From Thermoflexales bacterium (GTDB lineage: Bacteria > Chloroflexota > Anaerolineae > J036 > Brachytrichaceae): DNA of 64,000 nt. Within the stretch, counting starts at the first letter, position 1, and every line of letters starts with the position of its first letter. Of this stretch, positions 24,772 through 35,700 are shown piece by piece. The notes beneath the pieces were generated by a model. That model worked only from the letters and a program-made list of their open reading frames with translations. It had not been told where the DNA came from and ran no database searches. The translations under genes and the position numbers were made by a program. Location: assembly GCA_025056895.1 (NCBI GenBank), contig JANWVJ010000001.1, forward strand, positions 9,632-73,631, in the 5' to 3' direction.

Positions 24772-25206
24772 TTACTCACTTAACAGGTCAAGCAGGGCGT
24801 TTAACCCAAGCATGTAGCTGCGCCAGCCGAAGCCGGCGATCGTGCCGGCGCACACCGGCGAGATGTACGAGTGGTGGCGAAACGGCTCGCGGGCGTAAAT
24901 GTTCGAGAGGTGTACTTCTACTGTCGGCAGACCGACGGCGCTAATCGCATCGCGCAGGGCCACGCTGGTATGCGTGTAGCCGCCCGGATTAATCAGAATG
25001 CCATCGGCTTGCCCTCGTGCGGATTGAACTTCGTCGATCAGCACCCCCTCATGATTTGACTGAACAATCTTGAGGGTCGCGCTGCGCTGACCGGCCAAGG
25101 CGCGCAGCCGTGCGTTAATCTCGTCTAGCGTAACGCGGCCGTAGAGCGCCGGCTCGCGCAGCCCGAGCAAATTCAGATTCGGCCCGTGCAAAATCAGAAT
25201 ATGCAT
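24772..25206 (-). CDS. aroQ: Type II 3-dehydroquinate dehydratase
   Basis: [47 protein letters not shown]. Confidence 0.9.
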
Positions 25207-25216
25207 CGCGTTCTCC

Positions 25217-26839
25217 TCAGGGACTCGCTTGCTTCAGCGAGGCCAGCGCAGCTTTTGCTGCCCGCTCGTCCACACTGTCGGTGATCAACGCATCACCCGG
25301 CGCCCGCAGCAAGGCAAAACGCAAACGCTTACCGCGCTTCTTTTTGTCTGTTTGCATCAATTCCCACACAGCCTCGGCCTCGATGGCCGGCAGGCTTGTC
25401 GGCAAGCCGGCCCGTTGCAGCACCACAGTGACCGCATCCGTCAAGGCCGGGTCGCATAAGCCGATCGCTCGTGCCAACCGCATTGCGCACACCATGCCCA
25501 AGGCAACCGCTTGGCCGTGCTTGATGGTGAAACGACTCCATGCCTCGATGCCGTGGCCAAATGTGTGGCCCAAGTTCAGCAAAGCGCGCCGGCCCCGTTC
25601 AAACGGGTCTTCTTCCACGACCTCACGTTTGAGCAGAATGGCATCGAGCAACGTCTGTCTCAGGCCGATGCGCAGATCGGGATGCACTGCCAAACGCCAA
25701 TCCTCTGGATTCAACTGTTGAACCCGCTCCCAGGCAGCTCCGCCGCGCAGCAAAGCCGCTTTGACGATCTCAGCATAGCCACACTGCAATTCGTCAACCG
25801 GCAGCGAATTCAGCAAGTCCAGATCAATGAACACACCGTCGGGCTGTTTGAAGGCTCCGACCAGATTCTTGCCGAACGGCAAATCCACGCCCACCTTGCC
25901 GCCGATGCTTGAATCGGCCATTGCTAACAGAGACGTGGGAACCTGTACAAATCCAATCCCGCGCATATACGTAGCCGCTGCAAAGCCGGCCACATCGCCC
26001 ACGACACCGCCGCCCAGGGCAATCACGGCGCTATTGCGCTCCAGCCCGCCAGCGGCAAACGCTTGATACATGTCTTCAACCGTGCGCAACGTTTTGTGCG
26101 ATTCGCCGGCCGGCATCAGATACACGAAGCTATCCAGGCCGGCGCGGCGCAGGGCATGTTGCACCCGCTCGGCGTATAGCGCTCCCACAATATGATCTGA
26201 TACGATCGCCAGGGGACTGGCCCAACCCCGGCCGGCCAGGGCAAACCCAAGCTGATCGATCAGCCGTTCACCGATCACGATGTCGTAGCGGCCCGCAGGA
26301 TGGCGCACTGCGATCCGCTCGTGCTCTGCATGATAAATGTCAAGCGCCAATTGCGCGGCCTCTTCAACCGTGCGATGCGTGGTGTCGAGGTGATAGTGCA
26401 GCTCGGCGTAGGCTGGCGCGCGTTGCTCGAGCAGATGAGCCACTCGTTGATGGATGTTTTCGCCCGGCCGCTCAACTCGCAACATCGGGCGCGTCGAAGC
26501 GTCCACCCGACGCAAAATCGCCTCTGGCGAAGCCGTCAGACAAACAACGACCCCGGATTGCAACAGAGCTGCGCGGTTGGTTGGATTGACGACCGTCCCG
26601 CCGCCGGTCGCGACGACAATGTGCGTGCGAGTCGCCAATTCGTTTACCAGGGCCACCTCCAAGGCGCGGAAGTGCGCCTCGCCGTATTGGTCGAAGAGTT
26701 GGGGAATCGTCAGACCGGCGCGTCGCTCGATCTCGGCGTCGGTGTCGATAAAGTGATATCCCAGTCGGCGGGCAGCCAACTGACCGATCGTGGTTTTGCC
26801 GGCCCCCATGAAGCCGGCCAAGATCAACGGTTTGCTCAT
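25217..26839 (-). CDS. aroKB: Bifunctional shikimate kinase / 3-dehydroquinate synthase (AroK-AroB fusion)
   Basis: N-terminal P-loop [14 protein letters not shown] (AroK). C-terminal [44 protein letters not shown] and [11 protein letters not shown] (AroB). Confidence 0.9.
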
Positions 26840-26893
26840 GCTCGTGTTCTATGTTGCCGGCCTGGGCCGGCACAGTGCGTTGAGGGTATTCAC

Positions 26894-28081
26894 TCACTCG
26901 TAGCCGAACCGCCATGCGGTGTTGTCCATCGGCAGGTCATCCAATCGCAGCCGGCGCAATGCCTCAAAGCGCGGGCGCATTTCATCAATTGAATCGCCGC
27001 CCAGCTTTTCGAGCAAGGCGTCGGCCAACACAATGCACACCATCGCTTCGACAATCGGCACGGCGCGCGGGACTTGGCAGAAGTCGCTGCGCTCATATTG
27101 CGTCAGCGCCGGCGCGCCGGCTGCTAAGTCCACCGAACGCAGCGGGTTCAGGGTGGTGGCAATTGGTTTGAGCGCCGCACGCACAACGATCGGCGCGCCG
27201 TTTGTAATCCCACCTTCCAGCCCACCGGCGTGATTGCTGATCGGACGAATCACGCCGTCTTCGAGAACCAATTGATCTTGCACCTGCGTGCCGGGGCGCA
27301 GCGTCTCGGCGAAGCCATCGCCGATTTCCACCCCTTTGACGGCGTGAATGCTCATCACAGCAGCGGCGATGCGCGCAGAGAGCCGACGATCCCAGTGTAC
27401 ATGGCTGCCCAGGCCGGGCGGCACATTCAGGGCCACGCATTCGATCACACCGCCGAGCGTGTCCTTGGCCTGCATGATCTGACGAATGGCCTCACGCATG
27501 TGTTCGGCTGCATGCGGGTCATAGCAGCGCACATCCGACATTTCGGCTGCTTGGAAGCGCGCCAGATAGTCTGTGTTGCTCGGCATGTGAGCGACATCGC
27601 CGGTCAGGGCGACATCGCCGATGCGCACCACGTACCCGCCGACGACGACACCGAATTCCCTGAGCAGTTTGCGACAGGCTGCACCGACAGCCACGCGCAT
27701 CGTTGTCTCACGGGCAGAGGCGCGCTCTAAGGCCAGGCGCAACTCGCGATAGCCGTATTTCACCGCGCCGGTCAAGTCAGCATGGCCGGGGCGCGGAATG
27801 GTCATCGGCGAAATGTCACGATCGTGCCACTTAGCATGGTCGAGATTCTCAACCACGAAGGCGATCGGCCCACCAGTGGTTTTGCCGGCCATCACGCCGG
27901 CAGTAATGCGCGCATGATCGCGCTCGATTTTCATCCGTCCCCCGCTGCCGTAGCCCTGTTGCCGACGGGCCAGATCGGCGTCGATATCAGCAGAGGAGAG
28001 CGGCAAGCCGGCCGGCATGCCTTCGAGAATCGCTGTCAAGGACGGCCCATGGGATTCGCCGGCAGTGAGAAATCGAATCAT
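26894..28081 (-). CDS. aroC: Chorismate synthase
   Basis: MIRFLTAGESHGP start motif at the internal Met (28081). RPGHAD, SARETTMRVA and GGLEGGITNG. Confidence 0.9.
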   Translation of the reverse strand: MIRFLTAGESHGPSLTAILEGMPAGLPLSSADIDADLARRQQGYGSGGRMKIERDHARITAGVMAGKTTGGPIAFVVENLDHAKWHDRDISPMTIPRPGHADLTGAVKYGYRELRLALERASARETTMRVAVGAACRKLLREFGVVVGGYVVRIGDVALTGDVAHMPSNTDYLARFQAAEMSDVRCYDPHAAEHMREAIRQIMQAKDTLGGVIECVALNVPPGLGSHVHWDRRLSARIAAAVMSIHAVKGVEIGDGFAETLRPGTQVQDQLVLEDGVIRPISNHAGGLEGGITNGAPIVVRAALKPIATTLNPLRSVDLAAGAPALTQYERSDFCQVPRAVPIVEAMVCIVLADALLEKLGGDSIDEMRPRFEALRRLRLDDLPMDNTAWRFGYE

Positions 28082-28218
28082 GGCTGTGTTTGTGTCATCG
28101 TAATCGTGTGTAAGGGTGTGAATGAACTGTTGAGCGACGTAACAAGCTGCCAAAACGGCTCAAGGATGCCATCGTTCACCTCAAGCCGGAGGCGCGCCAC
28201 GGTATGTCGCGCACATTG

Positions 28219-29127
28219 TTAGGTCAGCCGATCCAGCGCGCGACGCATGATGTCTGCGACCTCCTGGATGGACAGCGGCACTGTCATGCCGGCCGTCCAC
28301 AAAGCAAATGCAGCCGCCCCTTGCTCGGCCAACATCCCGATACCGCCGATGACGCGCAGGCCGGCTGCCTGCGCTTCGCGCATCAGGCGCGTGATGCGCG
28401 GCTTATACACCAAGTCATACAAAACGGCGTCGGCGGGGAACGGCGCATCGGCCGGCCAGGGCGTTGTATCCGAGTGCGGGTCCATGCCGGCTGATGTGCA
28501 GTTCACAATCAAGCGCACGTCGTGAGCAGCGCGCAAGAGGGCGTTCCCGTTTAACGGCAACGGCGTCAACTCGGCGCGTGGGAAGACAGCGCGCATATCC
28601 TCAACCAGTTGGCGCGCGCGCCCGGCATCTCGATTTGCCACCCGCACGCTCCAGCCGCTGTGCGCCAGGGCGTACACCACGCCACGCGCCGAACCGCCGG
28701 CTCCCAGCACCAACGCTGCTGCCTGGGCCTGCCTTGCCGCCTCGATCTCAATTCCATGCCGACGCAGGTCATTTAGAAAGCCAACCCAGTCGGTGTTGTC
28801 GCCGATCAAGCGCATTGGGCGCGGCGAAGCAGCCTGTTGTGAGGCGGAATCGACCTTGACAATCGTGTTCACCGCGCCAATGGCCTCGGCGTGCGGGCCG
28901 ATTTCATCCAGAAATGGCATGACGTTAACTTTGTGCGGCACGGTCACGTTGGCGCCGACGATGCTATCGTCGGCGCGGATGCGCCACACGCACTCGGCCA
29001 GTTCTTCGAGCGGTGTATGCCACAGTTCATACTGCCAATCCAAGCCGGCGGCGATAAACGCAGCACGTTGCATGGCCGGCGAGGCGCTGTGCGCCACCGG
29101 AAAGCCGATCAAGCCCACGCGCTTCAC
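28219..29127 (-). CDS. aroE: Shikimate dehydrogenase
   Basis: GLIGFPVAHSASPAMQ, NVTVPHK, NTDWVGF and LGAGGSARG. A start at GTG 29127 makes a GTGA overlap with the aroA stop. The ORF-track start at 29193 would overlap aroA by 70 nt. Confidence 0.8.
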   Translation of the reverse strand: MKRVGLIGFPVAHSASPAMQRAAFIAAGLDWQYELWHTPLEELAECVWRIRADDSIVGANVTVPHKVNVMPFLDEIGPHAEAIGAVNTIVKVDSASQQAASPRPMRLIGDNTDWVGFLNDLRRHGIEIEAARQAQAAALVLGAGGSARGVVYALAHSGWSVRVANRDAGRARQLVEDMRAVFPRAELTPLPLNGNALLRAAHDVRLIVNCTSAGMDPHSDTTPWPADAPFPADAVLYDLVYKPRITRLMREAQAAGLRVIGGIGMLAEQGAAAFALWTAGMTVPLSIQEVADIMRRALDRLT

Positions 29128-30470
29128 TGCACGGCCTCCGGGGCGAGGCGCGCCAGGTCGCGGAAAAAGTCGGGATAGGTCTTGCTCACGCACTCGGCGC
29201 CGGTGATGATGGTTTCGCCGTGTGCGATCAAGCCGGCCACAGCCAGCGCCATCGCCATACGATGATCGCCGCGCGCATCGACTACCGCGCCGCGCAGGTG
29301 AGTCGGCCCTTCTACAACAAAGCCATCCGGCGCAGCGTCGATGTGGGCGCCCATTTTGCGTAGTTCTTCCACCAGACCATCGATGCGGTTGCTCTCTTTC
29401 ACACGCAATTCTTCTGCGTCGCGCACCGTGGTGACGCCTTGGGCCTGCGTAGCCGCCACAGCAAACACCGGAAATTCGTCAATCATACGCGCCACCCGCT
29501 CGCCGCCGACGGTGATGGCCCGCAGGGCGCTCGATCTGACGGCGATATCGCCTATCGGCTCGCCGGCATCATCGACCGATTCGACTTCGATGCGCGCTCC
29601 CATCGCGCGCAGTGCATCCAACAAACCGGTGCGGGTCGGGTTGAGACCGACCTGTTTCAAACGCAGATCGGCTTGAGGATGGATGCAAGCTGCTACCAGA
29701 AAGAAAGCGGCTGATGAAAAATCGGTCGGCACCGTCAGATCAATCGACGCAAGACCGCCCGGTGTGGGGTCAAGTGTGATGAGGTTGGCGCGACGCTGAA
29801 TGTGCGCTCCCATCAGCTCCATGATTCGCTCGGTGTGGTCGCGGGTCAGGATCGGCTCTTCGATGGCGGTGTTGCCCTGGGCGTACAAGCCGGCCAGCAA
29901 CAGCGCCGATTTGATCTGTGCGCTGGCGATGGGCAAGGTGTAGGAGATGCCGCGCAACATCGCGCCGGGGATATGCAACGGTGCGCAGCCGTCGCGATCG
30001 CTGATAGACGCGCCCATGCGGTTCAGCGGCTCGGTGACGCGGCGCATCGGTCGCCGGCGCAGTTGCGGGCTGCCATCTAATACGCTGGCAAACGACTGCC
30101 CAGCCAACAAGCCGGCCAACAGGCGCATCGTCGTGCCGGATGAATCGCAATACAACGGCGCAGAGGCTGGCGTCAAACCGCGCAAGCCGCGTCCTTCCAC
30201 GATCAACGTATGTCCTTCGTTTCGGATGCCCGCGCCCAGTTGCTGCATGATGTGAATCGCAGCGCGCGTATCGTCACAATCCAGATAGTCCATCAGCCGG
30301 CTCGTGCCATCGGCAATGCTGCCGAGCAGCACACCGCGCACGGTCACGCTGCGATCGCCGGGGACGCGCACCCATCCGGACATGCTTTGAGCGGGGCAAA
30401 TGAGTTGGTTCATTGTCGAATGAGCTGGTTCATTCTGGTTGAAGAGTGATCCCAACAGGTCTGATGACAC
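29124..30470 (-). CDS. aroA: 3-phosphoshikimate 1-carboxyvinyltransferase (EPSP synthase)
   Basis: VRVPGDRSVTVR, SSGTTMRLLAGLLA, RPMRRV and DHRMAMALAVAGL. The start may be the internal Met at 30413 (MNQLICPAQS..). Confidence 0.85.
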   Translation of the reverse strand: MSSDLLGSLFNQNEPAHSTMNQLICPAQSMSGWVRVPGDRSVTVRGVLLGSIADGTSRLMDYLDCDDTRAAIHIMQQLGAGIRNEGHTLIVEGRGLRGLTPASAPLYCDSSGTTMRLLAGLLAGQSFASVLDGSPQLRRRPMRRVTEPLNRMGASISDRDGCAPLHIPGAMLRGISYTLPIASAQIKSALLLAGLYAQGNTAIEEPILTRDHTERIMELMGAHIQRRANLITLDPTPGGLASIDLTVPTDFSSAAFFLVAACIHPQADLRLKQVGLNPTRTGLLDALRAMGARIEVESVDDAGEPIGDIAVRSSALRAITVGGERVARMIDEFPVFAVAATQAQGVTTVRDAEELRVKESNRIDGLVEELRKMGAHIDAAPDGFVVEGPTHLRGAVVDARGDHRMAMALAVAGLIAHGETIITGAECVSKTYPDFFRDLARLAPEAVQ

Positions 30471-30489
30471 ACCCTATCGGCAGCCTGCC

Positions 30490-31374
30490 TCAGAAATGTG
30501 CCTTGCGCGTCTGGGCAGCCGCAGCAAGATACGCGCGCAGGCCGGCCTCATCCTTGCGTTCGATCAGGGCGGTCAGTTGGTCCAGAGCAAATTGAAAGTC
30601 GCGAATGGCGCCAGTCACAGCTGGCGCGTTGGTCATCAAGATGTCAAGCATCATCGTTACATCACTGGCCGCTACGCGGCTGGTGTCACGAAAGCCGCTG
30701 GCAGTCACGCGCCATAGAGCGGGGTCATTCAAGCTGGCCTGATCGGCGGTTGTCACCAGGGCCACAGCCAAGGCATAAGGCAGATGGCTGGCAAATGCAA
30801 CCAGCATGTCATGTTGCGCCGGCTCCAATTCGAGAGGGACTGCACCGGCATCCTCTGCCAGAGTTTGAACGACGGTCAGGGCCGCATCGTCACTGCGGGC
30901 CGAACGAGTCACGATCCATGTTTTGCCACGATAGAGATCGGCATCGGCGGCGTCGAGACCGGTCACCTCTTTACCGCACATCGGATGCGAGCCAACAGCG
31001 CGTAGGCGGGGAGGAAGTTGATTCATCGCTTGGATGATTTCGGATTTGGTGCTGCCCAAATCGGTGATGATGGCGTTATCCGGCGCGCTGCCGGCCAGCG
31101 CGTGGAGTTGATCGATGATCGTGCGCACCGGCGTAGCGAGCACGATCAGATCGGCTTGTGCGACACCTTGTTGCAGAGACGTTGAGGCCGAGTCCACGAT
31201 GCCGCGCGCAAGTGCTTCGCGGGCCACTTCCTCGCGCCGGGTTACGCCGGCAATGTGCTGATATCGGCCGCGCACGGCCAGGGCCAGCGAGGCTCCCATC
31301 AACCCTAGACCAACGATGCACAGCGTCAAGGGGCGGTTGGCAGACACGTGATTGGTAGTTGGCGACTCACTCAC
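30490..31374 (-). CDS. tyrA: Prephenate dehydrogenase
   Basis: Rossmann motif LCIVGLGLMGASLALAV, GSTK and HPMCG. The ORF-track N-terminus (to 31527) overlaps aroF and is an alternative-frame echo. GTG 31374 or GTG 31347 is the likely start. Confidence 0.75.
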   Translation of the reverse strand: MSESPTTNHVSANRPLTLCIVGLGLMGASLALAVRGRYQHIAGVTRREEVAREALARGIVDSASTSLQQGVAQADLIVLATPVRTIIDQLHALAGSAPDNAIITDLGSTKSEIIQAMNQLPPRLRAVGSHPMCGKEVTGLDAADADLYRGKTWIVTRSARSDDAALTVVQTLAEDAGAVPLELEPAQHDMLVAFASHLPYALAVALVTTADQASLNDPALWRVTASGFRDTSRVAASDVTMMLDILMTNAPAVTGAIRDFQFALDQLTALIERKDEAGLRAYLAAAAQTRKAHF

Positions 31375-31399
31375 ACGCTGATTGTACGAGATGTGCTGC

Positions 31400-32431
31400 C
31401 TACACCGTTCGGTCAACGGCTGCGGCAACGCGGCGCACGCGCGCCACCAAATCGGCGTAGCGCGCCGGCGTGAGCGACTGGGCGCCGTCGGACAGAGCTT
31501 GATCTGGATGGGGATGGACTTCGACAATCAAGCCGTCTGCGCCAGCGGCGACGGCTGCCTTGGACACAGCGGTGACATACTCCCATTTGCCTGTGCCGTG
31601 GCTGGGATCGACGATCACCGGCAGATGGCTGAGCTGCTTGAGCACCGGCACAGCGTTGATGTCCAGTGTGTTGCGCGTGTACGTTTCAAACGTACGGATG
31701 CCGCGCTCGCACAGCATCACGTTGTAGTTGCCTTGCGACATGATGTACTCGGCGGCCATCAGCAGTTCTTCCATCGTGCTGGACATGCCGCGCTTGAGAA
31801 GGATCGGTTTCATGCTGGCGCCGGCGGCCATGAGCAGGGGGAAGTTCTGCATGTTGCGCGCACCGATTTGCAAAATGTCGGCGTAAGCGGCCACCAGGTT
31901 GACTTGTTCGGTAGCCATCACCTCGGTGACAATGGCCAGGCCGGTCTGTTCACGCGCTTCGGCAAGCCATTTCAGTCCTTGTTCGCCATGACCTTGAAAC
32001 GAGTAAGGGGAAGTACGCGGCTTAAAGGCCCCGCCGCGCAAAATAGCGGCGCCGGCTTCCTTGACGGCATGCGCCGACTCTAGCACTTGCTCGCGGCTCT
32101 CAGCAGAACAGGGGCCGGCCATCAGCGCAATCGGCGCCGGTGGCCCACCGATTGAGATGGTGCGCCCGTTGACGCGAATGGAGATGATGGTATCGTCCTT
32201 CTTAAACTCACGGCTGGCCAGCTTGAACGGTCGCAGAATCGGCACGACGCGCTCGACGCCGTTGAGCAGTTCAAACATATCACGGTTGACCGGGCGATCG
32301 TTGCCGACTACGCCGATGATGGTGCGTTCTTCGCCCTGCGACAAATGCGCTTTTAAGCCGATTTCTTCGATGCGCTTGACTACGGCCCCGATCTCGGCGC
32401 TCGAGGCCTCGGATTTCATGATAATAACCAT
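31400..32431 (-). CDS. aroF: 3-deoxy-7-phosphoheptulonate (DAHP) synthase, type I-beta, with an N-terminal ferredoxin-like/ACT regulatory domain (copy 1)
   Basis: The catalytic core ([37 protein letters not shown]) matches the KDO8P/DAHP I-beta family. A ~75-aa N-terminal domain, [18 protein letters not shown], resembles the Thermotoga-type regulated enzymes. Confidence 0.9.
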
Positions 32432-32509
32432 CTTTCGATCTCCATGTGCAGGTTTCGGATTGCGTGCTTGCCGTGAGATGGCGCATCACAAACCCCAACC
32501 TGCTGAATA

Positions 32510-33538
32510 TCAAATCGTGCGATCCATCGCCTCGGCAATGCGGCGTGTTTGCTTGACCAGGTCGGCAAACGCTTCAGGCGTGAGCGACTGGGCGCCATCG
32601 GACAGAGCTTGAGCCGGATCGGGGTGAACTTCGACAATCAGCCCATCTGCGCCGGCGGCAACGGCAGCTCGGCTAGCGGCAATCACGAACTCGGATTTGC
32701 CGGTGGCATGGCTGGGATCAACAACAACCGGTAAATGGCTGAGCTTCTTCAGCACCGGCACAGCGTTGATGTCCAGTGTGTTGCGCGTGTACGTTTCAAA
32801 CGTGCGGATACCGCGCTCACATAACATGACGTTGTAGTTGCCGCGCGACATGACGTATTCGGCGGCCATCAACAATTCTTCAATGGTGTTCGCCATGCCA
32901 CGTTTGAGCAGCACCGGCTTCATGCTGGCGCCAACCGCGTTGAGCAGAGCGAAGTTCTGCATGTTGCGCGCACCGACTTGTAGCACGTTGGCATACTGAG
33001 CCACCAGCGGCACTTGCTCAGGAGACATCACCTCGGTCACAATTGCTAAACCGGTTTGCTCACGCGCCTCGGCCATCCATTGCAGCGCCTTTTCACCGTA
33101 GCCTTGAAAGGAATAGGGCGACGTGCGCGGTTTGAACGCCCCGCCGCGCAGACCTTTCGCGCCGGCTTCCTTGACGGCGTGCGCCGACTCCAGCACTTGC
33201 TCGCGGCTCTCGGCCGAACAGGGGCCGGCAATGAGGACGACTTCCCTGCCACCCATGCGGACGCTGTGGCCGTTCATTCCGATCAAGGTAACTGCTGTGT
33301 TGTCCGGCTTGAATTCACGGCTGGCCAGCTTAAACGGCTTGAGGATAGGCAAAGTGGCTTCAACACCGGGCAGCGTCTCGAACACTGTTCGATCCACCGG
33401 CCGGTCATTGCCGACTACGCCGATGACGACTCGCTCTTCGCCGTAGATCGGATGGGCCTGGAACCCCAGCGACTCAACACGCGCCATAATGGCGCCGACT
33501 TCTTTAGCAGTTGCGCCCGCCTTCATAATGATGACCAT
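32510..33538 (-). CDS. aroF: 3-deoxy-7-phosphoheptulonate (DAHP) synthase, type I-beta, with an N-terminal regulatory domain (copy 2, tandem paralog)
   Basis: Same motifs as copy 1. GAGGA lies 7 nt upstream of the ATG. The catalytic core is highly similar to copy 1, while the N-terminal domain is much more diverged. Confidence 0.9.
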
Positions 33539-33668
33539 AGTCTTGTCCTCACTTGAGTAATCGATCGAATAGATAGATTGGTTAGATGGATCAATTCGGG
33601 AACGAGGTGATTGAGCAACTTAGCTCAAGATTAAATGAGCGGACCGCTCGACGAGCTTATCCGGTCTT

Positions 33669-34037
33669 TCAACCCTCCTGAATGCGATCTGGGCGCAGTT
33701 TCTCGGCGCCTCGGATGTAGATATGTTTGATTTCGTCGGCGCGCCGGGCGGTGTTCCAGTGGATCATCACGCGCACGCAGCGCGGCAGACCATGTGGAAC
33801 GTCCATTTCATGCATGCACATCAGCGCAGCGCTTGTCCAACCGAGTTGACGAGCAGCAATCGCGGGAAACTCAGCGTTCAGATCGCGAGTCGTGCTGAAG
33901 AAGGCGCTGGCGACATCTTCAATTTGGATACCGTTCGCTTCGATCATTTTCTCCAGTAACTCGCGTGTTGCTTCAATGATGGCCTCCGGTGTGTTGTCTG
34001 CTGCCACCGTTGCGCCTCGGACGCCACGTAACCACAT
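33669..34037 (-). CDS. aroH: Monofunctional chorismate mutase, AroH class
   Basis: MWLRGVRGATVAADNTPEAIIEATRELLEKMIEANGI parallels B. subtilis AroH (MMIRGIRGATTVERDTEEEIL..LLEKIIEEN). About 120 aa. GGAGG lies 10 nt upstream. Confidence 0.85.
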   Translation of the reverse strand: MWLRGVRGATVAADNTPEAIIEATRELLEKMIEANGIQIEDVASAFFSTTRDLNAEFPAIAARQLGWTSAALMCMHEMDVPHGLPRCVRVMIHWNTARRADEIKHIYIRGAEKLRPDRIQEG

Positions 34038-34067
34038 AATCGAAAGACCTCCATGTGCGATGTGCCT

Positions 34068-34106
34068 AACAACAAAAAGAGCGCGGAGCTTACTGCTCCG
34101 CGCTCT
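34068..34106 (-). terminator. Intrinsic terminator of the aro leader (attenuator segments 3:4)
   Basis: Minus-strand sequence AGAGCGCGGAGC-AGTAA-GCTCCGCGCTCT forms a 12-bp perfect stem with a 5-nt loop, followed by TTTTGTTGTT. It ends 30 nt before the aroH ATG. Confidence 0.8.
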
Positions 34107-34128
34107 GATTTACTGTGTGCCGCCTGCT

Positions 34129-34236
34129 TCAGGTTGTGCTTGCCTGGGCAGACTCGCGTGAGCGTAAGCTACTGTTGCCGCTGGCAAAGTAGCCGTAAAA
34201 CCAGAAGCTGCTAAACGAGAAGGCTCCGCGAGTCAT
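34129..34236 (-). CDS. Aromatic-rich leader peptide (35 aa) of the shikimate operon
   Basis: Hand translation of the minus strand gives MTRGAFSFSSFWFYGYFASGNSSLRSRESAQASTT plus TGA. Codons 6-17 contain 5 Phe, 1 Trp and 2 Tyr. It is below the ORF-track size cutoff. It sits between a consensus promoter and the terminator. A GAAGG motif lies 2 nt upstream of the ATG. Confidence 0.7.
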   Translation of the reverse strand: MTRGAFSFSSFWFYGYFASGNSSLRSRESAQASTT

Positions 34237-34251
34237 GACCTTCGGTCCAAG

Positions 34252-34280
34252 ATACTAACGGATGGCGATGGATGTGTCAA
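34252..34280 (-). promoter_or_regulatory. Consensus sigma70-type promoter TTGACA-17-TAGTAT of the aro leader/operon
   Basis: On the minus strand the -35 TTGACA is at 34280-34275 and the -10 TAGTAT at 34257-34252, with exactly 17 nt between them. The predicted TSS is near 34245, about 10 nt before the leader ATG. Confidence 0.7.
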
Positions 34281-34285
34281 GGGGT

Positions 34286-34308
34286 AAGAAGAAAGAAGAA
34301 AAGAAGGA
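34286..34308. repeat. 23-nt pure polypurine/polypyrimidine tract at UP-element position of the aro promoter
   Basis: The plus strand reads AAGAAGAAAGAAGAAAAGAAGGA, so the sense strand of the operon reads TCCTTCTTTTCTTCTTTCTTCTT. It occupies roughly -42 to -64 relative to the predicted TSS and is strikingly AT-rich for this genome. Confidence 0.5.
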
Positions 34309-34326
34309 TTGACGGGCAGCACATTT

Positions 34327-35700
34327 TCACCCGACCAGTTTATAGCCGCGCCCGCGCACGGTCAGCAAATAAACAGGTTCCGGCGCTCCCGGTTCCAGTT
34401 TGGCGCGCAGCCGGCTGACCAGCTTCTCGATCCGCGCGTCATCGACCTCGTTCAAGTAGTTCTCGCCCCACACTTCGGTAACGATGGTGTATTTGTCCAC
34501 GATCTTGTTGAGCCGACCGTAGAGCAGGAGCAACAACTTGTATTCCAGCTCGGTCAGTGTCTCAATCGGCCGGCCATCTACATAGACATCGCCGGCTTCC
34601 ACATCCACCCGCACGCCGCGTTCGCGCCGGCCAGCAGACAAGGCCTGGCGCTTGATAAAGGATTGCCATAAGGCTCCTACTGCCGGCCCGGTATCAGGGG
34701 CACTGCTATCCTCTGTGCTCGGCGAGCAAGGCAATAGGTTTCTGAGGCGCAATCGAGTCAATGTCGCCTGATCCAGTGCCTGCTCATTAACGCGCCCGTG
34801 GCCGAACAGCGCCATCAAGGTGTCGCGTTCGGGAACAGTCAATTGCGTCCACAATTTCAGACACTCCTGATGCACAGTAGCATCTGCATCGAAGGCATAT
34901 GCAGCGACCGATTGCGCTTCGCGTTGTGCGCTCTTTGGAGCGCCGGCTGCAACACGCCCGTAGATTTGGACAATGCTTTTGAGCAGGCCGGGATGTCCGC
35001 CGGCCTGATGCACTAGAAAATCGACCTCATCGCTCTCGAGTGTGAAGTCGTCGGCTCTGGCCAGTTCCCAAACCAATTCGCGTGATTGGGCGGCATTCAG
35101 GAAACCGATCCAGTGCGTTTGGGCAGCAAACAACTCCACAAATTCGGATGCCTCGTAATCAGCGCGTATCTCTGACAAGGGGCGGTCGGTAGCCGTCACA
35201 AACGTGAGATTGTCGCCAAAGCGATCCTTGCTGGCACGCAGATTGAGAAACACGCGCCCATCCAACTTCTCAAACGGATCGTCAAACTCATCCAGCGCGA
35301 GCACGATACGTCGGCCTGAATCCTCGCATAGCACGGTCAGCGCCTCATTGAATGCCAACGCGCTGCGCAATGGCGTGGGCGGCTGCACCACTTGCTGGCG
35401 GAACACATTCAAGCGCGAGAGCAAGCTTTCCGTTGTGTTGCTCTGCCGTAAGGCTTCGATCACGTTGCGCAACACAATCTCATGCAAGGCGCGCTCACTC
35501 CGCTCCGGCATCAGGTTGCAATCTACATAGACAAACAACCAACGCTCGTCCGGTTGCTGCCACACCAGCCGGCGAACGGCTGACGAGCAGACAGCCCGCA
35601 GCAGAGTTGACTTGCCGGTATTGCTTAAACCGATAACGGAGGCGCACTCCGCTGCGCGTACAGCCGACAGCAACGCTCGTAGTTCCTGTTCACGAATCAT
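34327..35700 (-). CDS. P-loop NTPase (AAA/STAND-like) fused to a C-terminal OmpR/PhoB-type winged-helix DNA-binding domain
   Basis: Walker A GLSNTGKST. Walker B IVLALDEFDD. C-terminal Trans_reg_C pattern LTELEYKLLLLLYGRLNKIVDKYTIVTEVWG..DDARIEKLVSRLRAKLE..LLTVRGRGYKLV. There is no receiver domain. Confidence 0.7.
   Translation of the reverse strand: MIREQELRALLSAVRAAECASVIGLSNTGKSTLLRAVCSSAVRRLVWQQPDERWLFVYVDCNLMPERSERALHEIVLRNVIEALRQSNTTESLLSRLNVFRQQVVQPPTPLRSALAFNEALTVLCEDSGRRIVLALDEFDDPFEKLDGRVFLNLRASKDRFGDNLTFVTATDRPLSEIRADYEASEFVELFAAQTHWIGFLNAAQSRELVWELARADDFTLESDEVDFLVHQAGGHPGLLKSIVQIYGRVAAGAPKSAQREAQSVAAYAFDADATVHQECLKLWTQLTVPERDTLMALFGHGRVNEQALDQATLTRLRLRNLLPCSPSTEDSSAPDTGPAVGALWQSFIKRQALSAGRRERGVRVDVEAGDVYVDGRPIETLTELEYKLLLLLYGRLNKIVDKYTIVTEVWGENYLNEVDDARIEKLVSRLRAKLEPGAPEPVYLLTVRGRGYKLVG

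Follow-up and report, generated by a model that had tools for sequence, protein, structure and literature searches.

How does a bacterium of the Chloroflexota match the expression of its aromatic amino acid pathway to the supply of phenylalanine (Phe), tyrosine (Tyr) and tryptophan (Trp)? The question is raised by a locus in a Thermoflexales bacterium (assembly GCA_025056895.1, contig JANWVJ010000001.1), in which a row of nine genes for the shikimate pathway, headed by aroH, is preceded by a short open reading frame (ORF) that is crowded with codons for these three amino acids. The whole stretch of DNA that was analysed, 64,000 nucleotides in length, is referred to here as the window, and its features are found on the minus strand except where another strand is named. 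Judged from its sequence, the leader in front of aroH very probably acts as a ribosome-mediated leader-peptide transcription attenuator, which would sense charged Phe-, Tyr- and Trp-tRNA and gate read-through into the aroH-led shikimate operon. A first-pass annotation of the window had proposed such a device, and the proposal is supported by a mini-ORF, a terminator and alternative pairings that are conserved across the Chloroflexota.

The leader is preceded by a sigma-70-type promoter (34252..34280), composed of a -35 box TTGACA (34280-34275), a 17-nucleotide spacer and a -10 box TAGTAT (34257-34252). This promoter lies where the first-pass annotation had put it, matches 10 of 12 consensus positions and is the top-ranked promoter-like site in the 14 kb of a promoter scan. 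The -10 box is separated by 15 nucleotides from the ATG of the leader ORF at 34236, and the ORF (34129..34236) encompasses 35 codons and a TGA (34131-34129), as had been described, with MTRGAFSFSSFWFYGYFASGNSSLRSRESAQASTT as its predicted product. The likely sensor is found in codons 6-17 (34186..34221; FSFSSFWFYGYF), where 5 Phe, 1 Trp and 2 Tyr codons make up 8 of the 12, in agreement with the earlier count. In all six frames of the 64-kb window, this run provides the sole stop-free 10-codon window with at least 7 aromatic codons. The aromatic run is not a chance feature, because it is unique in the window in this respect and recurs upstream of aroH in dozens of genomes. We infer that the leader ORF is translated.

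The predicted 5' untranslated region (UTR) amounts to only about 8-10 nucleotides from the position of the promoter, a shortness (about 10 nucleotides) that had been noted from the outset as a caveat. The promoters of relatives were compared in a 50-nucleotide flank 5' of the leader, some flanks being too short to reach the promoter, and most close relatives with a long enough flank carry TTGACA and a TAnnAT -10 box at the same spacing from the leader start. The distance from -10 box to leader start codon is 13-19 nucleotides in the window's clade (the window and loci L001, L002, L003, L166, L170 and L172). It is 35-40 nucleotides in leaders of the Chloroflexia type, which have purine-rich stretches 5' of the ATG. 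The leader ORF of the window's clade is thus predicted to be nearly leaderless.

Downstream of the ORF, the RNA contains an intrinsic terminator (34068..34106) of the form AGAGCGCGGAGC-AGUAA-GCUCCGCGCUCU at 34106-34078, the two arms of which are seg3 and seg4, followed by the U-tract UUUUGUUGUU (34077-34068). The perfect stem of 12 base pairs, 9 of them G-C, the 5-nucleotide loop, the U-tract and the 30 nucleotides between the end of this tract and the aroH ATG (34037) are all as originally claimed, and the hairpin has an energy of -24.7 kcal/mol. Two further segments are found within the ORF. Seg1 (GACUCGCGGAGC; 34223..34234) begins at the G of the ATG and provides the 5' strand of the anti-antiterminator. 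The extended seg2 (AGCUUACGCUCACGCGAGUCU; 34150..34170), which covers codons 23-29, forms the 5' strand of the antiterminator and has seg1 as its alternative partner. The 3' strand of the antiterminator (UCAGAGCGCGGAGCAGUAAGCU; 34087..34108) incorporates the 5' arm of the terminator, its loop and the first 3 nucleotides of its 3' arm. The four segments of the first-pass annotation all occupy the minus-strand positions assigned to them. In the unconstrained minimum-energy fold of 34250..34040, the seg1:seg2 helix, with the expected 12 base pairs and one bulged A, and the seg3:seg4 terminator are both present, and the fold has a z-score of -3.9 relative to shuffles.

The seg1:seg2 domain folds at -37.9 kcal/mol and encloses an inner hairpin, GCUACUUUGCC-AGC-GGCAACAGUAGC (34168..34193), that is found both by folding and by RNAalifold. 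The 5' strand of this hairpin includes the last aromatic codons, its 3' strand shares nucleotides with the beginning of the antiterminator strand, and because its strands span these two elements it plays the role of the textbook segment 1. The pairing of seg2 with seg3 had been put at 8 base pairs; it exists, but this size was too small. The 8-base-pair core, at -12.8 kcal/mol, is contained in a helix of about 18 base pairs (34170-34150 with 34108-34087) that reaches -24.0 kcal/mol, close to the value of the terminator. When the 5' part of the leader is removed, in imitation of ribosome occupancy, and the transcript is cut at seg3, after the loop, or after the loop and 3 further nucleotides, the minimum-energy fold is the seg2:seg3 antiterminator each time.

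The comparison of this leader with those of other genomes drew on 80 aroH loci, with one genome per species, 80 metagenomic loci and 13 close relatives retrieved through exact-protein look-ups. The best stop-free 10-codon window within 400 nucleotides upstream of aroH was taken and its aromatic codons were counted. At least 6 aromatic codons in 10 were found on the sense strand in 53 of 147 loci, on the antisense strand in 2 of 147 and in only 3 of 735 shuffles, and the sense distribution is bimodal. A hand tally of the record titles in the one-genome-per-species set places the element in about 50 of 56 Chloroflexota-labelled loci outside the Dehalococcoidia, and in none of 15 Planctomycetota, 5 Desulfobacterota and 3 Dehalococcoidia loci. 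Altogether, homologous mini-ORFs are found upstream of aroH in 67 non-redundant loci. Examples of their peptides are MQSRSTYYFWFWYFASSPRDWLLRVG in Roseiflexus, MLTKPVYFYFYFFSTQPRRNCEEVVTR in Ardenticatenaceae and MTRGAFSFSYFWFYGYFADGKSSLLPRGSTKGMTS in the nearest relatives of the window, with VSTYRNFFFFSFYYFYASFRKGRLFRVERD as a further typical case. An in-frame ATG opens 58 of the 67, at a median distance of 7 codons from the first aromatic codon, and the median length of the peptide is 29 residues. The densest 10-codon windows of the 67 leaders are composed of 34% Phe, 31% Tyr and 5% Trp, or 70% aromatic residues together, and Trp codons are present in 33 leaders.

Within the aromatic run, Phe in one lineage may be Tyr in another, and each of the two is encoded by both of its synonymous codons (UUU 184, UUC 41, UAC 119 and UAU 90, with UGG at 35). 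This fits selection that acts on the class of amino acid and not on one set RNA sequence, and it is the aromatic class of codon that is conserved, with no particular string of nucleotides kept. A test of openness in the three frames was discarded: for frame 0 the argument is circular, and the other two are open in many leaders as well (50 of 67 and 27 of 67). The genes 5' of the leader vary, and include a glycosyl hydrolase, a pseudouridine synthase and an integrase, with a STAND-type regulator in the window. Since these neighbours change while the leader keeps its place beside aroH, the element travels with aroH.

The RNA part of the element is likewise conserved. A strong hairpin with a U-rich tail is found between ORF and aroH in 67 of 67 leaders, with a median energy of -23.5 kcal/mol, a median of 26 nucleotides past the leader stop and a median of 55 nucleotides before aroH. 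In an alignment of 24 sequences of the Chloroflexia type, the terminator stem is 98.3% paired and 6 of its 12 pairs show compensatory changes, as in one that is A-U in 12 sequences and G-C in 12. An alignment of the regions upstream of aroH orthologs had been proposed in the first-pass annotation as a way of checking its claim, and in it the aromatic mini-ORF is kept and the terminator stem covaries. The antiterminator also has its counterpart. The end of the Chloroflexia-type ORF (GGUUGCUUCGCGUUG) pairs over 13-14 base pairs with the 5' arm and loop of the terminator (GGCGUGGAGCAAC), giving duplexes of -20 to -23 kcal/mol with z-scores, in the best cases, of -3 to -5.6 against shuffles. Here seg2 falls within the final codons of the ORF, and in most members 3 nucleotides separate its end from the stop. 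Taken column by column in the same 24 sequences, the antiterminator is 90.7% paired, a figure that drops to 37-53% once the partner strand is shifted by 1-3 columns. Two-sided changes are seen at two of its pairs, one of which involves a nucleotide of the terminator loop. The loop nucleotides are unpaired in the terminator, and a strand that is complementary to them therefore speaks specifically for the alternative helix.

In the window's clade, the AGCUUAC of seg2 is invariant in 12 of 12 members, including a UUA Leu codon. UUA is a rare codon in GC-rich genomes, and its invariance within this string points to a constraint at the level of RNA. The inner hairpin is recovered by RNAalifold in this clade, with pair 70:78 as G-C in 6 sequences and A-U in 6, and its Chloroflexia counterpart (ACCAGCC...GGNCUGGU) is 86% paired. 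The first seven pairs of the seg1:seg2 helix are formed in 8 of 8 of the window's closest sequences, where loci L003 and L165 show compensatory changes from A-U to G-C, U-A to C-G and C-G to U-A. In the L166/L170/L172 subclade this helix also begins at the start codon, in another register. The shuffle z-scores of the seg2:seg3 and seg1:seg2 duplexes are weak (about -1) in this GC-rich clade, and the column-wise pair counts and truncated-transcript folds are therefore relied on there. These comparisons support the four-segment description for the window's clade.

Some other pairings were seen in the same region. A further hairpin surrounds the leader stop codon (GUCUGC.CAGG ... CCUG..GCAGGC; 34122..34153, by folding), its 5' strand overlapping the 3' end of seg2, and in relatives of the L001 type GUCUAC and GUAGAC, as paired by eye, stand in its place. 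The codons UUC UGG UUU UAC (34186-34206) can pair with GUAAAUCAG (34109-34119), just 5' of the terminator, a helix that forms in folds when a ribosome is placed at codons 6-7, and also when the transcript is cut before seg4 and folded with no ribosome. A helix proposed by RNAalifold between columns 51-55 and 98-102 of alignment A2 was set aside, being weak and in competition with the better-supported seg1:seg2 helix.

The reach of the element was also explored with a covariance model, R1, which describes the hairpin and terminator and was built only from the 24 Chloroflexia-type leaders, with none from the window's clade. It was searched against the window and 432 kb of other loci; the E-values are rough, as calibration was shortened. 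The aroH leader provides the sole full-length match on the sense strand of the window (34069..34197, 31.6 bits, E about 9e-6, model positions 1-118 of 118). There is one other match in the window, which is partial and falls on the plus strand over the palindromic terminator. R1 matches about 40 further leaders, each directly upstream of aroH, from Anaerolineae, Ardenticatenaceae, Aggregatilineales, Herpetosiphonaceae and others, and none in the Planctomycetota, Desulfobacterota or Dehalococcoidia loci of the 432 kb searched. It seems rather probable that the homologous aroH leaders represent an undescribed RNA and upstream ORF (uORF) family that spans the phylum, in Chloroflexia and Anaerolineae and not Dehalococcoidia. 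In this family a peptide with about 70% Phe, Tyr and Trp would gate the whole common aromatic pathway, as a sensor that reports when any aromatic amino acid is short.

The attenuator would operate as follows. Transcription would start about 9 nucleotides 5' of the leader ATG, and the 35-codon leader would be translated by a ribosome as RNA polymerase moves on. With aromatic aminoacyl-tRNAs in ample supply, the ribosome would pass codons 6-17 and reach the stop codon, where it would sit between seg2 and seg3. In its wake, the extended seg2 (34170-34150) would pair again with seg1 (34234-34223) and the inner hairpin (34193-34168), and seg3, left free, would form the 12-base-pair terminator (34106-34078 and the U-tract), such that transcription would stop 30 nucleotides before aroH. 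Were any of the aromatic aminoacyl-tRNAs scarce, the ribosome would stall in the aromatic run, melt the inner hairpin and hold seg1 and seg2 apart. The freed seg2 would then capture the emerging seg3 together with the terminator loop, and the resulting antiterminator of about 18 base pairs would take the loop-closing nucleotides before seg4 is made, allowing the polymerase to read through. The stalling of the ribosome, the coupling of transcription to translation and the regulatory outcome are all read from the arrangement of the sequence.

A number of observations weigh against this scheme. Two of them concern the positions of the ribosome. When the stop codon occupies the A site, the footprint is assumed to be about 34146-34117 and misses seg2, which ends at 34151 with the stop 20 nucleotides further on. 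The claim that a ribosome at the stop covers seg2 is therefore wrong for the window's clade, and holds for the Chloroflexia type, in which seg2 lies 3 nucleotides from the stop. To block the antiterminator, the window's clade would have to rely on the seg1:seg2 helix, on a ribosome placed between seg2 and seg3, or on the two together. In the same manner, seg1 is already out of reach of a ribosome that stalls at codons 11-17, and the claim that the stalled ribosome covers it fails for these codons; such a ribosome melts the inner hairpin and sits within the loop of the seg1:seg2 helix. The window's clade thus needs extra assumptions, either steric exclusion or a second, queued ribosome. The start of translation is a further difficulty in this clade, as a 5' UTR of only about 6-12 nucleotides without a conserved Shine-Dalgarno sequence means that initiation would have to be Shine-Dalgarno-independent.

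Other difficulties arise from folding and covariation. A comparison of the two helices with masking had been suggested in the first-pass annotation. The energies of the two helices are given above, and equilibrium folds with a 30-nucleotide ribosome mask at every codon keep the terminator throughout (P about 0.9-0.98). A family-wide version, in which seg3 may pair with anything upstream in a transcript stopped before seg4, gave mean values of 0.70 for stalled ribosomes, 0.60 for terminating ribosomes and 0.68 with no ribosome. It was rejected as evidence, since seg3 finds some partner in GC-rich leaders. As equilibrium folding fails to reproduce the switch, the choice between terminator and antiterminator must be kinetic, as it likewise is in attenuation of the trp operon. 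The covariation of the antiterminator is modest, with most of the variation one-sided (U pairs with A or G), both of its strands are nearly invariant in the window's clade, and the compensatory changes in seg1:seg2 stem from essentially one lineage split. There is also a gap of 130 nucleotides after aroH (33539-33668), comparatively AT-rich, before the first DAHP synthase gene.

The very short 5' UTR, with its missing Shine-Dalgarno sequence, would suit an attenuator that does not depend on translation, in which a tRNA acting in the manner of a T-box, a small molecule, or a TRAP-like protein on the U-rich UUU/UAC triplets picks the helix. A real and conserved terminator/antiterminator pair would be expected here too, and T-boxes have been reported in Chloroflexi (PMC3766115). 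This alternative is nonetheless quite unlikely. A search of window positions 33500-34800 with Rfam 15, at E-values up to 10, gave no match to a T-box, a leader family or other Rfam family; the one hit close to the element was a sub-threshold match to the trpB motif RF04312, which at 22.8 bits is far from its threshold of 59 and rests mainly on the terminator. No family reached its gathering score in 19 related loci and no relevant family appeared at E-values up to 1 in 6 of these related loci, and RNAalifold found no conserved aptamer-like structure in the window's clade beyond the switch helices. A factor that binds RNA would also leave aside the conservation of amino-acid class through exchanges of Phe, Tyr and Trp and of synonymous codons, the in-frame start a median of 7 codons ahead of the run and the fixed relation of the stop codon to seg2.

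Translation of the leader could instead act by a route other than intrinsic termination, through Rho-dependent polarity or with the hairpin serving as a processing or stability element. Several U-tracts of the Chloroflexia type are interrupted (CUCUGUUGU) and would make weaker terminators, and the equilibrium models that show no switch are in keeping with such a route. The hairpin in the window is, on the other side, a canonical terminator in its stem length, G-C content and U-tract. It is also clear of the aroH ribosome-binding site, both in the window and at the median distance of the family, and the conserved strand complementary to its 5' arm and loop makes most sense as a competitor of the hairpin, all of which makes this second possibility very unlikely. 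A functional aromatic-rich micropeptide or a small RNA gene, with the hairpin as its own terminator and its place before aroH incidental, is extremely unlikely. The small ORF is indeed annotated by gene callers in several assemblies, and a terminated transcript of about 175 nucleotides is expected under any model. What is conserved, though, is the composition of the run and no peptide sequence, and the apparent conservation at the C-terminus tracks the RNA pairing strand, down to the invariant UUA codon. The element invariably adjoins aroH on its 5' side and shares its strand, with differing genes further upstream, and an antiterminator would be pointless in a stand-alone gene. The leader-peptide attenuator remains the preferred reading of the locus.

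The genes that would be controlled by the attenuator were assigned by Pfam. They begin with aroH (34037-33669), encoding a type I chorismate mutase that is identical to a protein of a Thermoflexales/Anaerolineae metagenome-assembled genome, and this gene is followed by two genes for DAHP synthases (33538-32510 and 32431-31400), each with a ferredoxin-like regulatory domain (PF18152), and by tyrA (31527-30490), encoding prephenate dehydrogenase. Next are aroA (30470-29124) for EPSP synthase, aroE (29193-28219) for shikimate dehydrogenase and aroC (28153-26894) for chorismate synthase. The last two are a fused aroK-aroB (26839-25217), encoding shikimate kinase and dehydroquinate synthase in 540 residues, and aroQ (25206-24772), encoding type II dehydroquinase. 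The claim of a complete shikimate operon is borne out in that these nine genes (24772..34037) cover every step of the shikimate pathway together with chorismate mutase and prephenate dehydrogenase. Their shared strand and short gaps suggest a single transcript.

The gap after aroH holds a weak hairpin, GAGCGGUCCGCUC (33649-33637), and then AUUUAAUCUU; in close relatives the distance from aroH to the DAHP synthase gene is 8-176 nucleotides. This gap may act as a further point of control or may terminate transcription in part. A promoter-like TGCACA-18-TATTAT (32450-32421) overlaps the start of the second DAHP synthase gene. The tandem paralogs, both with the N-terminal PF18152 domain, and the promoter-like site at the second suggest isoenzymes that are differently feedback-regulated. 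In the product of the gene directly 5' of the leader promoter (34327-35700), a STAND/AAA NTPase is joined to a DNA-binding winged helix of the OmpR type (Trans_reg_C); this gene is not kept beside the leader in other genomes.

A different arrangement is seen in a group of Dehalococcoidia-like loci (L030, L031, L036, L063, L075, L102, L103, L107, L116, L149 and L159), where aroH has no aromatic leader in the 230 nucleotides upstream. It directly follows a gene with, by eye, a trpA-looking C-terminus (…GSAIID…VKEYVEVLTGRR), and between the two there is a conserved hairpin motif, CUCGGGCC-N9-GGCCCGAG, with UAUGG before it, for which no Rfam match was found. In locus L004, a sub-threshold match to RF01356, a model of the direct repeat of clustered regularly interspaced short palindromic repeats, was found at 2593-2616 (31.3 bits against 35, E 0.066), a few hundred bases 5' of the leader of that locus, and is probably due to chance.

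Most accounts of leader-peptide attenuation treat it as a device of proteobacteria, to which scattered actinobacterial cases are added. A conserved attenuator in two classes of the Chloroflexota would extend the mechanism to a phylum for which no report was found. A comparative survey that included five Chloroflexi genomes covered only the His, Trp, Thr and Leu leaders of Rfam and, within that scope, suggested a gamma-proteobacterial origin of amino-acid attenuators (PMC3766115). If the leader acts as proposed, its conservation would imply that transcription and translation are tightly coupled in Chloroflexota, as indirect evidence that ribosomes there trail RNA polymerase closely, and the leader would offer a natural, sequence-defined reporter for testing this coupling. 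A single sensor of Phe, Tyr and often Trp codons would explain control of the common aromatic pathway in this phylum. The window's clade would, moreover, have an unusual design, with the start codon inside the anti-antiterminator and an antiterminator that captures the terminator loop. The set of leaders also makes a ready seed alignment for a new RNA family, and improves the annotation of many metagenome-assembled genomes.

How far the element is new depends on its likeness to systems already known. In Corynebacterium glutamicum, a leader called aroR, with Phe-Tyr-Phe, attenuates the aroF (DAHP synthase) operon (Neshat et al. 2014, as presented in PMC11802643). It shares with the Chloroflexota leader a mixed Phe/Tyr peptide and an operon that starts the shikimate pathway. 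It differs, according to that account, in belonging to the Actinobacteria, in having three sensor codons only, as opposed to 7-9 in 10, in a reported response to Phe and not to Tyr, and in having aroF rather than aroH as its first gene; the likeness, drawn from the description given there, is functional only. The uORFC-13-1 motif of Acholeplasma is a predicted uORF with Phe codons just 5' of an intrinsic terminator, before the DAHP synthase gene aroF, and in this respect resembles the Chloroflexota element (PMC8632094). The motif is, in contrast, confined to Acholeplasma and some environmental sequences, and encodes one Phe or more in a run of U, with no dense run of Phe, Tyr and Trp (PMC8632094); no Rfam match to the Chloroflexota element was found for it. 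With these precedents, a mixed aromatic leader before a shikimate gene is not new as an idea, and the novelty claimed in the first-pass annotation was to that extent overstated. What stands of it is that no description of a Chloroflexota leader was found in the full-text literature that was searched, which does not take in the broad survey of attenuators by Lopatovskaya et al. 2010 (Mol Biol 44:128), and the aroH leader possibly founds an undescribed, phylum-spanning family.

The aromatic T-box riboswitches of Firmicutes share with this element a choice between terminator and antiterminator, in a 5' leader, that depends on the charging of tRNA. T-boxes bind uncharged tRNA directly and have no need of translation, whereas the Chloroflexota element contains a conserved ORF and gives no T-box match. 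Its logic is closer to that of pheL-pheA and trpL-trpEDCBA of Escherichia coli, which likewise have a short leader ORF rich in codons for the end product. They likewise have mutually exclusive terminator, antiterminator and anti-antiterminator helices, with stalling on the sensor codons favouring the antiterminator. Unlike these leaders, it matches no Rfam leader family, and so has no sequence or structure homology with them. It mixes Phe, Tyr and, in half of the leaders, Trp in its sensor at a density of about 70%, and has as its target the common shikimate pathway with chorismate mutase and prephenate dehydrogenase rather than a terminal branch. The terminator loop is included in its antiterminator. 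Leaders of the window's clade are further set apart by a stop codon 20 nucleotides beyond seg2 and by a nearly leaderless ORF whose start codon is overlapped by seg1. The mechanism is a textbook one, and it is the breadth of the leader, the density of its mixed sensor and its implication for coupling that make it worth reporting.

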